DNA of 8,112 bases, from IMG/VR virus record IMGVR_UViG_2563366903_000016; one strand, written 5' to 3'. The notes under the pieces were generated by a model. That model was not told the origin of the DNA and did no database searches. It saw nothing but the letters and a program-made list of their open reading frames with translations. Positions 2,255 through 4,749 of the stretch are shown here, in pieces. Numbering within the stretch: the stretch's first letter is position 1; each line of letters starts with the position of its first letter. A program made the translations under genes and the position numbers. This stretch comes from a virus. Its lineage: Duplodnaviria > Heunggongvirae > Uroviricota > Caudoviricetes.

Positions 2255-2487
2255 TGCTGACTCCTTTGCCCGGCAGATTTCTCGTTGAGCTGCTTTTTAA
2301 GGGTGGCGATTTCACTTTCCTGATCCTGAATTACCTGAATTGCTTCCATGGTGATCCTCAGTGAGATTGCTGAAGTGATAACGAGCTCTGGTCTTCCAGC
2401 AGCAGCGATAACTTTTGCTGCTTCCTCATGTGCACGGGCGATGAGACGCAATTCCCGCAAAAGCTCTTTGTTGTTTTCGCTATTCAT
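2251..2487 (-). CDS. hypothetical protein (78 aa), helical/coiled-coil-like
   Basis: ATG at 2487 with GGAG upstream; charged, heptad-like sequence (ELLRELRLIARAHEEAAKV ... EIATLKKQLNEK). No family recognised. Confidence 0.5.
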   Translation of the reverse strand: MNSENNKELLRELRLIARAHEEAAKVIAAAGRPELVITSAISLRITMEAIQVIQDQESEIATLKKQLNEKSAGQRSQQ

Positions 2488-2521
2488 TTCCTGACTCCGG
2501 TGTTACTGATTTACTGGTTGT

Positions 2522-3502
2522 TTACGTACTGGCGGTGATTAACATCGCGCTGTAAGTTGCATCTTCCGTTACAGGTCCGCAGTCCGGGCAGTAGCCACCG
2601 CCATGGCGACCGCAGGCGTCGCACTGTCTCAGGGTGGCGATAACCTCCGGTGCTGATTCCCGGGTTCTTGCGCCAACGCTTCGTGGTGCCAGGATGGTGT
2701 TCATCCGGTAACCCTGATAAATGCGTCTGGTTTCCGGTGTGTCGGAATTGGAGATGGTGATGCTGGTCATGCCGCCCGTTTCCTGTGAAAGGCGGTCAAG
2801 CGCTGCCCTCAGACGAACGTGCTCGTCTTCATCGAATGGTTTTCCGTAGGCGGTAAAATTGTCCCGGCCACTGAATTGCAGGTAAGGGGGATCGCAGTAC
2901 ACGCAAAGCGTGTTGCCCATGCCGAACAGGTGACTGGCAGAGTTCAGCGTATCCTTAAAATCTGCGTGGATAAGCAGCGTTCGGGTGCTGTTTGCCTTGT
3001 CTGCAAATGCGCGGATTTCACGCTCAGGGAAGTAGGGCTTGCGGTAGCAGCCGAAAGGCACGTTAAAATCGCCTTTTCCGTTCACGCGGAACAAACTGTT
3101 AAAGCTGTGTCGGTTCAGGTACAAAAACATGGCGGCCAGTCGCAGTTCACGGCGGTCGCTTATTCCCGTTCTGCTGTTCAGGAAGGCATGATTCTCTGCG
3201 TTAAAGGTTTCGCGAATGATGAGATAGTCACCCCTGTTGTTGTGGTTCAGGAACAGGGTTTTCGCCTCGTCGATCAGGCTGTCGGTGTTGTCCCTGGCTT
3301 GCCGGTAGAAATTAATCAGCGCACCATTGGAATCACCCAGGATGTAACGCTTGTAACTGGTGTTCATGAATACCGATGCGCCGCCCACGAACGGCTCAAC
3401 CAGACAGTCGGCTTCTGGCAGGTGCGCCTTCAGTGTGTTCATGATGCGGCTTTTTCCGCCCACCCATTTCAGTGGCGTACCGGATAACAGTTCTTTGCTC
3501 AT
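2522..3502 (-). CDS. dam: DNA adenine (N6) methyltransferase, Dam family, with C-terminal Cys4 zinc-ribbon-like extension
   Basis: Dam-family signature blocks: LKWVGGKS, LVEPFVGGASVF (SAM-binding FxGxG), FLYLNR, FNVPFGCYRKPYFPE, catalytic VYCDPPY, NFTAY. Extra C-terminal tail carries CDACGRHGGGYCPDCG (CxxC-x8-CxxC). AAAGAGG RBS 7 nt upstream of ATG 3502; start overlaps the stop of the upstream ORF (ATGA). Confidence 0.9.
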   Translation of the reverse strand: MSKELLSGTPLKWVGGKSRIMNTLKAHLPEADCLVEPFVGGASVFMNTSYKRYILGDSNGALINFYRQARDNTDSLIDEAKTLFLNHNNRGDYLIIRETFNAENHAFLNSRTGISDRRELRLAAMFLYLNRHSFNSLFRVNGKGDFNVPFGCYRKPYFPEREIRAFADKANSTRTLLIHADFKDTLNSASHLFGMGNTLCVYCDPPYLQFSGRDNFTAYGKPFDEDEHVRLRAALDRLSQETGGMTSITISNSDTPETRRIYQGYRMNTILAPRSVGARTRESAPEVIATLRQCDACGRHGGGYCPDCGPVTEDATYSAMLITAST

Positions 3503-3726
3503 AACGCGGCCTCTTTGTTATAGTTTTCGTGCGTTAATAAATCCCATGACGCCCCGTTGTTTTTGCTCAGCAATCGCCAGCGAAAACCGATTCTTATTAC
3601 CAGGTAGTCGTGGGGTTTTATGCGTGAAAAATTCCGCACGCCGTCGCGGAATAAACGCAGCGATGCGCGGGCTTTTCTTTCCACGTTCAGGGGGGGGCAG
3701 CAACACACATTCAGGATGGCGACCAT
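3499..3726 (-). CDS. hypothetical small protein (75 aa) containing a C8/G8 homopolymer, translationally coupled to dam
   Basis: ATG at 3726 with strong GAGGTGA RBS 6 nt upstream, 9 nt after the exonuclease stop. Stop TGA overlaps the dam ATG (3499-3502). Codons 10-13 read through the homopolymer (TGC CCC CCC CTG). A second long open frame (3518-3706) also crosses the tract. Confidence 0.5.
   Translation of the reverse strand: MVAILNVCCCPPLNVERKARASLRLFRDGVRNFSRIKPHDYLVIRIGFRWRLLSKNNGASWDLLTHENYNKEAAL
3690..3697. repeat. G8/C8 homopolymeric tract (candidate slipped-strand site)
   Basis: Eight consecutive G on the plus strand (3690-3697), inside the 5' part of CDS 3499-3726. Confidence 0.9.
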
Positions 3727-3735
3727 GGCTTCACC

Positions 3736-4317
3736 TCATATGTTCAGGAATGGTGTTGTGAAGCGCTGCCAGATTTCTGACACGACCTTTGCCTGGTAAA
3801 TGGCGTCGCCCAGCGCGGTGTGAGCAATGGCCTCTTTTCCTGATCTGCCTGGCATTTTCCATCCAGTTGATTCAGCCATGGCGATAAGCGGGCGCATACA
3901 GCGCTCGTTCCAGTAGCACCAGGGGATGCTTTTTTCTCCGGCTGTGCGTGTTATGGCGGATTTCAGGATCGGGAAATCGAAGGATGCGCCCTTACACCAT
4001 ATGGTCAGTGAATTGCCCGTGCTTTCGTCATGCATATTGCGTGAAATGAACGCCAGAAATTCGGTTACTGCCGCAAGCTCTGTTCCCTCTGCGTTGCGCA
4101 GGCAGGATCTGGCCTCCACGGATTGTCCGGCCCACCATACGGCGGTTGCTGCATTGACGGTTCCACCGTTGCGTTCTGAATCCACCGGGTCGATGAGTTT
4201 CTCAAACTGTTTGCCCAGCTTTCCGGTGAACGGGTCGAAAAACACCGCGCCAATCGCGAATATGACTGCGTCCGGTCCGGTACCCAATGTTTCGGTGTCG
4301 ATCATGAGATGGTTCAC
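3736..4317 (-). CDS. DEDDh-family 3'-5' exonuclease (DnaQ-like fold)
   Basis: Exo I motif MIDTETLG (D-x-E), Exo II ASFDFPIL, Exo III HTALGDAIYQ (H-x4-D). Likely start is GTG at 4317 (AAGGAG 8 nt upstream; GTGA overlap with the upstream stop at 4314-4316); the alternative is ATG at 4305. Track start 4326 is a GTG directly abutting the SD and is unlikely. Confidence 0.8.
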   Translation of the reverse strand: MNHLMIDTETLGTGPDAVIFAIGAVFFDPFTGKLGKQFEKLIDPVDSERNGGTVNAATAVWWAGQSVEARSCLRNAEGTELAAVTEFLAFISRNMHDESTGNSLTIWCKGASFDFPILKSAITRTAGEKSIPWCYWNERCMRPLIAMAESTGWKMPGRSGKEAIAHTALGDAIYQAKVVSEIWQRFTTPFLNI

Positions 4318-4547
4318 TGTGTGCACTCCTTCTGTTCGGCGTTGTTCGTGAGCGTTGCAATCAGTCGTTCAATGGATGAGCAGGTTTCCTCCGGGGAGGT
4401 GTGCTTCTCTCTCGCTGTGTCAACCAGGTCACGCAGCAATTCGCAGATATGCGCACGCTCGGCTTTTCTTGCGGCCATGCTGATATGTGCATGATGGTTA
4501 GCTGGTCTGGCGGCTATTTCTCTGCCGGGTGATTCGGCTGTTCTCAT
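4314..4547 (-). CDS. hypothetical protein (77 aa)
   Basis: ATG at 4547 with AGGAG 7 nt upstream (track start 4571 is an in-frame TTG). Stop overlaps the exonuclease GTG start. No family recognised. Confidence 0.5.
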   Translation of the reverse strand: MRTAESPGREIAARPANHHAHISMAARKAERAHICELLRDLVDTAREKHTSPEETCSSIERLIATLTNNAEQKECTQ

Positions 4548-4647
4548 TTGTTGACTCCTGAAAAAAGACAAAGGGACCCCGAAGGCATGAATGCCTTAAT
4601 TAATTGCTCGTGTGTTTTCTGGTGTTATTCCGCGCCTGCTTTCGGCT

Positions 4648-4749
4648 TCAGATTATCCCCAGATTCTTCAGTGCTAACCAGATAAGCGCACTCACCTGAA
4701 ATATCACCCATGCAGTAGCGATGGTGAGTATTACTTTTACATTCTTCAT
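4648..4749 (-). CDS. candidate small hydrophobic peptide (33 aa)
   Basis: Untracked ORF ATG 4749 to TGA 4648: MKNVKVILTIATAWVIFQVSALIWLALKNLGII. Begins 12 nt after the stop of the upstream peptide gene; no clear SD, so it would rely on reinitiation. Confidence 0.2.
   Translation of the reverse strand: MKNVKVILTIATAWVIFQVSALIWLALKNLGII

Follow-up and report, generated by a model that had tools for sequence, protein, structure and literature searches.

A run of eight cytosines near the 5' end of a small ParE-like gene varies in length among related prophages of Escherichia coli. We read this C8 run as a slipped-strand hotspot that produces recurrent ON and OFF alleles of the ParE-like gene and is probably not an evolved regulator, a reading to which we assign a probability of roughly 0.6. 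The gene belongs to an early lytic operon, running from cox to A, in a P2-like prophage of E. coli. The window analysed is an 8,112-nt stretch of viral DNA (Caudoviricetes; IMG/VR record IMGVR_UViG_2563366903_000016), and the coordinates of its relevant features are given in Table 1.

A first-pass annotation of the window described a 75-aa ORF directly upstream of dam, with a strong ribosome-binding site, and placed a homopolymer tract at its codons 10-13. Both descriptions agree with a direct reading of the minus strand, where the ORF is preceded by the Shine-Dalgarno (SD) sequence GAGGTGA and the tract codons read TGC CCC CCC CTG. The tract sits 27 nt into the gene, and 188 nt separate it from the start codon of dam. 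It is the single G8/C8 run observed in the window, against 0.08 expected. At least one such run appears in 15 of 200 dinucleotide shuffles of the window, so its presence is only mildly unusual by composition.

Family searches match the 75-aa ORF to Pfam PF24732 (ParE_like) and to phrog_1525, and its protein is predicted to adopt a RelE/ParE fold. An NCBIfam search returned no model matching the small ORF, and its RefSeq name evidently rests on the Pfam-level family. Homologues of 75 aa exist in other genera, residues R51, H66 and Y69 are conserved, and purifying selection within the gene region is confined to the ParE frame. Judged by its sequence, the ORF is a genuine gene encoding a conserved phage protein, not a leader peptide. 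The protein also occurs in lytic phages that have no methylase neighbour. Compared with type II toxins of the RelE/ParE superfamily, it is shorter and has a single N-terminal helix, and its toxicity is only putative. No cognate antitoxin gene is recognisable beside it, the adjacent genes encoding an exonuclease and Dam; the small ORFs that follow it in Klebsiella, Pantoea and K. spallanzanii were considered as antitoxins and have no family match. PF24732/phrog_1525 represents an uncharacterised family of solitary RelE/ParE-fold phage proteins, often found beside DNA methyltransferases in Peduoviridae. Literature searches returned no description of PF24732 function.

The synteny between the exonuclease and ParE-like genes is kept in E. 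coli, Klebsiella, Citrobacter and Pantoea prophages, and gene overlaps of the ATGA type are the norm along the operon. Klebsiella and Pantoea have an additional small ORF between the ParE-like gene and dam, and in Salmonella phage SW3 the gene order is Dam, ParE_like, Dcm. No promoter-like site was found on the minus strand between 2400 and 4700, and a promoter and terminator scan of this strand shows nothing above expectation. By analogy with Pe/C control in P2, the early operon is presumably silent or repressed in the lysogen. Deposited phage genomes include none with the tract-bearing E. coli lineage; the best DNA matches extend over dam alone, and protein identity reaches 63% at most.

Table 1. 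Features of the tract-bearing locus (positions in the 8,112-nt window; aa, amino acids)
Feature	Position	Strand	Basis and remarks
Dam-family N6-adenine DNA methyltransferase gene (dam), 326 aa	2522..3502	minus	TIGR00571, E = 2e-65; PF02086, E = 4.8e-51
ParE-like gene, 75 aa	3499..3726	minus	PF24732 ParE_like / phrog_1525; RelE/ParE-superfamily fold predicted; switched by the tract
SD of dam, AAGAGG	3510..3515	minus	Direct reading; 7 nt ahead of the dam ATG; not base-paired in the MFE fold
Alternative (-1) frame of C6/C9/C12 alleles	3518..3706	minus	Non-conserved product of 68-70 aa; ends in TAA, 16 nt short of the dam ATG
GTG codon 15 in the ParE frame	3682..3684	minus	2 nt past TGA 3687..3689; possible re-initiation in C7/C10 alleles, 61-aa product
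TGA directly 3' of the tract	3687..3689	minus	In-silico tract variants; in-frame stop of C7/C10 alleles
C8 homopolymer (G8 on plus), hypermutable tract	3690..3697	minus	Read directly; codons 10-13 of the ParE-like ORF; single G8 in the window
SD-less starts, ATG 3710-3708 and GTG 3706-3704	3704..3710	minus	In the ParE-domain frame in C9/C6 and C7/C10 alleles, respectively
SD of the ParE-like gene, GAGGTGA	3731..3737	minus	Direct reading; 4 nt before ATG 3726; overlaps the TGA stop of the exonuclease gene
Rv2179c-like 3'-5' exonuclease gene	3736..4326	minus	PF16473, E = 8e-51; conserved upstream neighbour of the ParE-like gene

Variants of the tract made in silico define three outcomes. With C8, C5 or C11 the full-length ParE-like protein is encoded in frame from the strong-SD ATG. 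With C6, C9 or C12, ribosomes from ATG 3726 enter the alternative frame, which, as the first-pass annotation stated, is long, open and ends shortly before dam. With C7 or C10 the sequence reads MVAILNVCCCPP and then an immediate TGA, giving a peptide of 12-13 aa. The earlier proposal that any one-base change leads into the second frame therefore holds for the +1 change (C9, and likewise C6 and C12) and fails for the -1 change (C7, and likewise C10). Re-initiation at the GTG just past this TGA is possible in C7/C10 alleles, and a few genomes carry a 61-aa form of the protein in their annotation. All three frames have a start codon no more than 20 nt upstream of the tract. PGAP, the NCBI annotation pipeline, starts a 70-aa form at the upstream ATG and a 68-aa form at the GTG of the SD-less pair. 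Neither has an SD within 20 nt upstream, and ribosomes translate across both; for these reasons we rejected them as rescue starts, take them as an annotation convenience and do not count them as evidence.

Tract length is polymorphic among relatives. The first-pass annotation had called for a search for length heterogeneity across related prophages and allowed that the tract might be a fixed sequence. Such heterogeneity is found, with C6 to C10 seen in DNA and two longer forms, C11 and C12, in database proteins, and this refutes strict invariance. C8 prevails at ~76% of loci, and out-of-frame lengths occur in ~20% of the 46 loci surveyed. The complete E. coli genomes gave 27 full matches, with C7 in MSB1_4I and KY203, C9 in NCTC9112 and LZSFT34, and also a tract interrupted in frame, CCCCACCC, which characterises one E. 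coli sublineage. IMG/VR contigs carry C8 in four cases and C7 in two, and Illumina metagenome contigs assembled with SPAdes carry C8 in 11, C7 in one and C10 in one. C6 and a further C9 are confirmed at the DNA level; C11 and C12 are deduced from the database proteins. A pattern scan of genome contigs also matched a Chthoniobacter MAG, which is a chance match only.

Exact-sequence look-ups, counted in contigs, return the C8 product in at least 1000 contigs, the C9 trans-frame product in 201 (with a further 39, 31 and 12 on other backbones), the 70-aa form of C9 in 31, the 68-aa form of C7 in 100, C11 in nine, C12 in four and C6 in a few; the C8 count is a lower bound, the population frequencies of tract lengths are rough, and some of the large counts may reflect the clonal spread of one allele that had become fixed. 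Once the tract is normalised, 11 sequence backbones can be distinguished. At least six of them have off-lengths, and C7, C8 and C9 all occur on the main backbone. The 228-nt ParE-like gene has no indels among relatives besides those in the tract, and control homopolymers in the same loci show no length variation (A7 at 1048-1054 in 13 loci, T6 at 3930-3935 in 21 loci and T8 at 1289-1296 in three loci). The behaviour of the tract across relatives is beyond chance.

Homologues in Klebsiella, Citrobacter and Pantoea read TGC AGC GCA CCG CTG or similar at this position, without a run, and no homologue from outside the E. coli lineage has the tract. By this comparison, the tract is a derived and lineage-specific feature. 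As in a contingency locus, a simple repeat within an ORF is length-polymorphic among related strains, and in silico its length changes would switch expression of the ParE-like gene by frameshift.

The sequences show how the tract is built, that its length varies naturally and recurrently, what each length does to the reading frame, and to which family and predicted fold the gene belongs. The most economical view is of a lineage-specific mutational hotspot at the four tract codons. Slipped-strand mispairing during replication would add or remove cytosines at the C8 run, and the resulting frameshift alleles would be heritable, recurrent and in principle reversible. Because at off-lengths the ParE domain could be started only at SD-less codons, with a predicted N-terminal β-strand lost or replaced, off-length alleles are probably null or strongly hypomorphic. 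The target of switching would be the ParE-like gene itself. Expression of dam would be at most mildly affected, since dam has its own SD and ribosomes in the +1 state would come to within 16 nt of it; the C7 stop, ~185 nt upstream of dam, could cause polarity. The presumed silence of the operon in the lysogen would explain why off-alleles are tolerated. If the tract is a hotspot only, the finding is an ordinary one, useful as a marker for unstable homopolymers and for prophage genes under relaxed selection. Natural loss-of-function alleles of the PF24732/phrog_1525 family would, to judge from these sequences, already be available for comparison.

Only in the tract-bearing lineage does the alternative frame stay open, over 56 codons (p = 0.006-0.012 with synonymous resampling, p = 0.10 with a codon-order shuffle), which hints at selection on the off-state and is not predicted by a pure by-product model. 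An evolved contingency switch would keep a hypermutable 5' tract so that some prophages or virions lack a potentially toxic protein, and the open alternative frame and start-rich upstream stretch would keep ribosomes flowing to dam and gene A when the ParE-like gene is off. The position of the tract so early in the gene is the classic ON/OFF arrangement (Lin & Kussell, PMC3315296), the length changes recur in both directions from C6 to C12, start codons in all three frames crowd the stretch before the tract, and the proline codon used in the tract, CCC, is a rare one in E. coli. Repeat-mediated switching of an E. coli prophage gene also has a precedent in neuO of CUS-3 (PMC3046976, PMC13001214). 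We nevertheless think such a switch unlikely. The tract is missing from every homologue outside the E. coli lineage and interrupted in one sublineage within it, C8 is dominant, the open frame has p = 0.10 under the codon-order shuffle, and retention of the tract over ~7% divergence is within neutral expectation. Selection on the tract would be limited because the operon is presumably repressed in lysogens. E. coli has active mismatch repair. It also generally avoids simple repeats (PMC3315296). In a more elaborate version, which we consider quite unlikely, the tract, the immediate TGA, the 56-codon frame and the start-rich stretch would together form an evolved three-state switch of a temperate phage, in a species thought to lack mononucleotide contingency loci. 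C8 would then yield a host-targeting RelE/ParE-fold protein, C9 would silence this protein and still escort ribosomes to dam, and C7 would silence it and also uncouple or attenuate the downstream early genes. The phage population would, if this is true, spread its risk over different infection programmes in E. coli. A natural C6-C12 poly-C tract toggling a conserved phage gene would be a rare and easily testable example in the textbook species for avoidance of simple-repeat contingency loci, set in a phage early operon and not in a surface-antigen gene.

The remaining alternatives place the effect of the tract elsewhere or deny that it is biological. The first-pass annotation proposed that translation of dam relies on the small ORF, so that tract length could set methylase output stochastically, like a phase-variable switch; the locus would then resemble a phasevarion. 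The ATGA overlap that it described is present (the TGA of the ParE-like gene overlaps the dam ATG at 3502-3499 on the minus strand), the tract polymorphism is real, and the C7/C10 stops would remove coupling and might permit Rho-dependent polarity. Against this model, dam has its own SD at optimal spacing; SD occlusion was considered and dropped, the region folding no better than shuffles (z = -0.49), and the stop/start overlap is combined with an SD on the downstream gene that is predicted to be accessible. Termination in C9/C6 alleles is near enough to dam for coupling to persist, overlaps of this type are generic to the operon, and relatives insert another ORF between the two genes or reverse their order. 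The repeat lies in a separate ParE-like ORF, outside the methyltransferase or specificity gene and its promoter, and that ORF encodes a conserved, independent protein. Modulation of dam by tract length is thus not supported, and we regard it as distinctly improbable. Recoding, which the annotation had also raised as a programmed frameshift site, would yield 75-aa and 69-aa trans-frame products from one allele, by -1 frameshifting on C CCC CCC or by RNA polymerase slippage. Read in frame 0, TG[C CCC CCC] is formally a slippery heptamer (X XXY YYZ), 56 codons are open in the -1 frame, and Pro-Pro codons are known pause sites. We judge recoding very improbable, however: the closest predicted hairpin lies ~19 nt 3' of the tract, where a stimulator would be expected at 5-9 nt, and a downstream stimulator was dropped because the region folds no more stably than shuffles (z = -0.67). 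In addition, the trans-frame product is not conserved and has no family match, the alternative frame is unconstrained (six synonymous to 27 non-synonymous substitutions) and has 3-4 stops that close it in the homologues from Klebsiella, Citrobacter and Pantoea, and transcriptional slippage in E. coli is documented chiefly at long A/T runs. Homopolymer miscalls in sequencing or assembly could also mimic length variants; G/C homopolymers are error-prone, and some variant genomes, such as NCTC9112, come from long-read projects. We find this explanation extremely improbable, given that variants are present in the SPAdes Illumina contigs and in hundreds of draft-assembly proteins (NCBI, ENA, Logan), that lengths range over C6-C12 and the same lengths recur across different backbones, and that the A7, T8 and T6 runs at the same loci are invariant.

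The hotspot reading can be set beside several known systems. Its best analogue is the G5 hotspot of mucA in Pseudomonas aeruginosa, a short G run in a coding region that gives recurrent -1 frameshift alleles in natural populations (PMC2781719). Loss of mucA is positively selected in cystic fibrosis lungs and essentially irreversible, whereas the ParE-like tract varies in both directions. The phase-variable polysialate O-acetyltransferase gene neuO of prophage CUS-3 in E. coli K1 likewise has a simple repeat in the 5' coding region of a prophage gene, whose copy number sets the frame, and protein is made only at in-frame copy numbers (PMC3046976, PMC13001214). That repeat is a heptanucleotide in a gene expressed in the lysogen (lysogenic conversion), with a demonstrated phenotype and demonstrated switching, whereas here a mononucleotide run lies in an early lytic-operon gene and the known variation is between isolates. 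Poly-G/C contingency loci of Campylobacter, Neisseria, Haemophilus and Bordetella, whose isolates differ in tract length (PMC1891110, PMC5084427), share the G/C homopolymer of ~8 nt near the 5' end of an ORF and the toggling of frame by ±1 slippage. These species have many such loci, mostly in surface or restriction-modification genes, and in several of them mismatch repair is incomplete and switching occurs at 1e-5 to 1e-2; the ParE-like tract stands alone, confined to one lineage and located in a phage gene. Phasevarions, with phase-variable Mod/Type I/III methyltransferases (PMC5909438), resemble the locus in having a repeat near a DNA adenine methyltransferase gene, a proximity that had suggested stochastic methylation. 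In phasevarions, however, the methyltransferase or specificity gene itself contains the repeat, and growing cells express the enzyme; at the ParE-like locus the repeat is in a separate upstream gene of a phage early operon.

Literature searches returned no description of the poly-C tract, nor of a phase-variable gene in P2-like coliphages. The tract also affects annotation, causing pipelines to call versions of the ParE-like gene of 46 to 76 aa, or a spurious 'hypothetical protein' of 62-69 aa.

Direct reading of the minus strand bears out the architecture described in the first-pass annotation, in which a 75-aa ORF with an upstream GAGGTGA carries a C8 tract and ends in an ATGA overlap with dam, the gene for a Dam-family N6-adenine methyltransferase. 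Positions are collected in the table. A G8 run occurs once in the window versus 0.08 expected, and since at least one is present in 15 of 200 shuffles, its occurrence by itself is only mildly unusual.

Positions of the C tract, the ORFs around it and other features of the early operon
Feature	Position	Strand	Remarks
75-aa ORF (ParE-like)	ATG 3726 to TGA 3499	minus	direct reading
GAGGTGA before 75-aa ORF	3737-3731	minus	overlaps stop of upstream gene
C8 tract (G8 on plus)	3697-3690	minus	codons 10-13 = TGC CCC CCC CTG
Second open frame	GTG 3706 to TAA 3520-3518	minus	ends 16 nt ahead of dam ATG
Alternative (-1) frame 3' of tract	3518-3688	minus	
AATGTGTGTTG	3700-3711	minus	just 5' of tract
ATGA overlap, 75-aa ORF stop/dam start	dam ATG at 3502	minus	
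Dam C-terminal extension	2522-2640	minus	residues ~292-318
DUF4406 gene	1683-2045	minus	phrog_355, E = 3.8e-38
C4 antisense RNA	925-1012	minus	Rfam, 82 bits
isrK	1048-1122	minus	Rfam, 64 bits
Derepression protein ORF	647-868	minus	73 aa, PF25738
370-aa ORF	565-1677	minus	rejected as spurious; covers the C4/isrK/derepression module

Sequence comparison shows the small ORF to be a real gene rather than a leader. Its family matches are Pfam PF24732 ParE_like (E = 2e-17, residues 14-71) and phrog_1525, where the match (E = 1.5e-26) covers residues 4-73 of a profile with 75 positions; the 62-aa alternative frame has no match in the family searches. Among E. coli-lineage haplotypes the ratio of synonymous to non-synonymous differences is 16:19 in the 75-aa frame versus 6:27 in the other. 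The homologues from Klebsiella, Citrobacter, Pantoea and K. spallanzanii share the length of exactly 75 aa and have a similar N-terminus (MHPRLSVICSAPL...). A library-wide profile search of 55-95 aa proteins gave only 73 representative clusters, in which the Pro at the tract position, A19, R51, L52, W61 and Y69 are conserved. The AlphaFold2 model is confident (pLDDT 88) and comprises beta1 (residues 4-7), a helix (13-27), four further strands and a C-terminal helix. No antitoxin-like gene was found among the neighbours of the gene. The family is also present in lytic phages (Sortsne, fHe-Yen8-01), not near any methylase, and in Peduoviridae its neighbours are Dam and/or Dcm genes, whose order varies. 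The family is a solitary phage protein of predicted RelE/ParE fold without a recognisable antitoxin. Two proteins from other genera, P0014 (Raoultella, 118 aa) and P0011 (122 aa), show frame disruption or fusion of an unrelated kind, namely a C-terminal frameshift into the following DNA and a fusion to the upstream exonuclease ORF; the gene therefore suffers indels elsewhere too.

In silico, translation from the strong-SD ATG produces the full-length protein at C8, C5 and C11 and ends after 12-13 codons at C7 and C10, while C6, C9 and C12 yield an unconstrained 68-70 aa product ending 16 nt ahead of dam. The proposal that a one-base change opens the long alternative frame is thus correct for C9 (+1) and wrong for C7 (-1), which reads MVAILNVCCCPP and then TGA at once. 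The C7/C10 stop is followed after 2 nt by a GTG of the ParE frame, at which we infer that re-initiation is possible. At the off-lengths, which put the 75-aa frame out of register, only ATG 3710 or GTG 3706 is in register with the ParE domain; both lack an upstream SD, and the predicted beta1 strand is missing or replaced in their products. PGAP still annotates 68-, 70-, 61- or 46-aa 'ParE family toxin-like' proteins at these lengths. AATGTGTGTTG holds a start codon in all three frames (ATG, GTG, GTG/TTG), none with an SD, so that pipelines always call a 'ParE-like' ORF at any tract length.

The tract-length heterogeneity that the first-pass annotation proposed to look for in related prophages is present, spanning C6-C10 in DNA and C11 and C12 as products. 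The full region is carried by 27 of 5426 complete E. coli genomes. Direct reading of 11 found C7 (MSB1_4I, JNEC-KY203), C9 (NCTC9112, LZSFT34), an interrupted CCCCACCC (2013C-3033, JNEC-KY176) and C8; the other 16, assigned by match length only, fit C8 (15) or C7 (JNEC-KY208). IMG/VR contigs added four C8 and two C7 loci, and metagenome contigs, mostly SPAdes-named Illumina assemblies, 11 C8, one C7 and one C10. The 46 loci comprise 35 C8, 6 C7, 2 C9, 1 C10 and 2 interrupted tracts, with the frame lost in ~20%. On other backbones, C6 and another C9 were verified at the DNA level. Exact-sequence look-ups in a 15-billion-protein collection, counted as contigs, returned at least 1000 for the C8 product, 201 for the C9 trans-frame product (plus 39, 31 and 12 on other backbones), 31 for the C9 70-aa form, 100 for the C7 68-aa form, 9 for C11, 4 for C12 and a few for C6. 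After tract normalisation the gene sequences fall into 11 backbones, at least six of which carry off-lengths; the commonest has C7, C8 and C9. The compared haplotypes show no indel elsewhere in the gene, and control homopolymers at the same loci, A7 (13 loci), T6 (21) and T8 (3), show no length change. These invariant controls and the recurrence across backbones rule out a general sequencing artefact; the length changes are recurrent and occur in both directions. The only match of a contig pattern scan, L031 (Chthoniobacter MAG JAXDQV010000215.1), was rejected as a homologue, being a chance match of two anchors around an unrelated spacer.

Homologues in other genera encode C-S-A-P-L (TGC AGC GCA CCG CTG or similar), with no run of five or more at the tract position, and one E. 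coli sublineage reads CCC CAC CC (P to T) with the frame kept. The tract is derived and not a family feature. We estimate that retention of C8 over ~7% nucleotide divergence would lie within what four synonymous sites allow.

A prophage of E. coli JNEC-KY204 matches the window at 99.9% identity, and the 75-aa protein has an exact match in E. coli KTE186. Annotation, in the + direction of the window, runs from replication endonuclease (gpA), derepression protein, DUF4406 and two small ORFs through DNA adenine methylase, 'ParE family toxin-like protein', 3'-5' exonuclease and several small ORFs to Cox, HTH repressor and integrase. This gene set identifies the early (cox-to-A) operon of a prophage that is P2-like (Peduoviridae); transcription is on the minus strand and proceeds in the cox-to-gpA direction. 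A minus-strand scan of 2400-4700 found no promoter-like site. In P2 the C repressor shuts off the early promoter Pe, and by analogy no expression of the operon genes is expected in the lysogen. The DUF4406 / nucleoside 2-deoxyribosyltransferase-like gene, downstream of dam, has a possible nucleotide-modification or salvage function. C4 and isrK lie in sense direction just 5' of the derepression protein ORF, and together these form a P1 c4/ant-like or Gifsy-1 IsrK-like antirepressor control module within the P2-like prophage.

The best explanation, to which we give a probability of about 0.6, is a slipped-strand hotspot at which ON/OFF alleles of a phage gene with RelE/ParE fold would arise recurrently. 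As a candidate phase-variable locus it works like mononucleotide contingency loci and resembles neuO of E. coli prophage CUS-3 (PMC3046976, PMC13001214). E. coli avoids simple repeats, and N-terminal repeats favour ON/OFF switching (Lin and Kussell, PMC3315296); the tract locus is therefore atypical for the species. By analogy with the G5 hotspot of mucA (PMC2781719), it would also fit a hotspot that is tolerated in a gene acquired horizontally and silent in the lysogen. Our literature search found no prior description of the tract. An evolved switch acting on the ParE-like gene seems unlikely, and is kept alive by the alternative frame, which no stop interrupts over 56 codons in any E. coli-lineage haplotype, against 3-4 stops in homologues from Klebsiella, Citrobacter, Pantoea and K. 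spallanzanii. Synonymous-codon resampling of the same protein leaves this frame open in 1.2% (local codon usage) or 0.6% (uniform usage) of cases and codon-order shuffling in 10%, which is suggestive and not significant. If true, ribosome traffic to dam in the +1 state would be maintained by selection. Recoding would instead give a second product from one allele; C CCC CCC has the formal pattern of a -1 slippery heptamer, but the nearest hairpin starts ~19 nt downstream of the tract, folding is not significant, and the trans-frame product shows neither constraint nor conservation.

While the sequence observation (apart from the -1 frame) and the length heterogeneity stand, tract-length control of dam by translational coupling is not supported, and we regard it as improbable. 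dam has its own SD (AAGAGG, 7 nt 5' of the ATG), unpaired in the MFE structure, and the surrounding 161 nt fold no better than shuffles (z = -0.49). Stop/start overlaps are the rule throughout the operon. Gene order varies in relatives: a 56-86 aa ORF separates the ParE-like gene from dam in Klebsiella, Pantoea and K. spallanzanii, and Salmonella phage SW3 has the order Dam, ParE_like, Dcm. In the C7 and C9 genomes dam is annotated intact. The tract acts directly on the ParE-like gene, and dam shows no demonstrable dependence on that gene. The locus also differs from a phasevarion, which is defined by a repeat inside the methyltransferase gene. The C-terminal extension of Dam contains a CxxC-x8-CxxC motif (CDACGRHGGGYCPDC), and this stretch alone matches RecE/exonuclease profiles (NF007259, E = 5.5e-4; phrog_20376, E = 1.4e-7). 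A zinc-ribbon module common to phage DNA enzymes is one possible reading of the extension.
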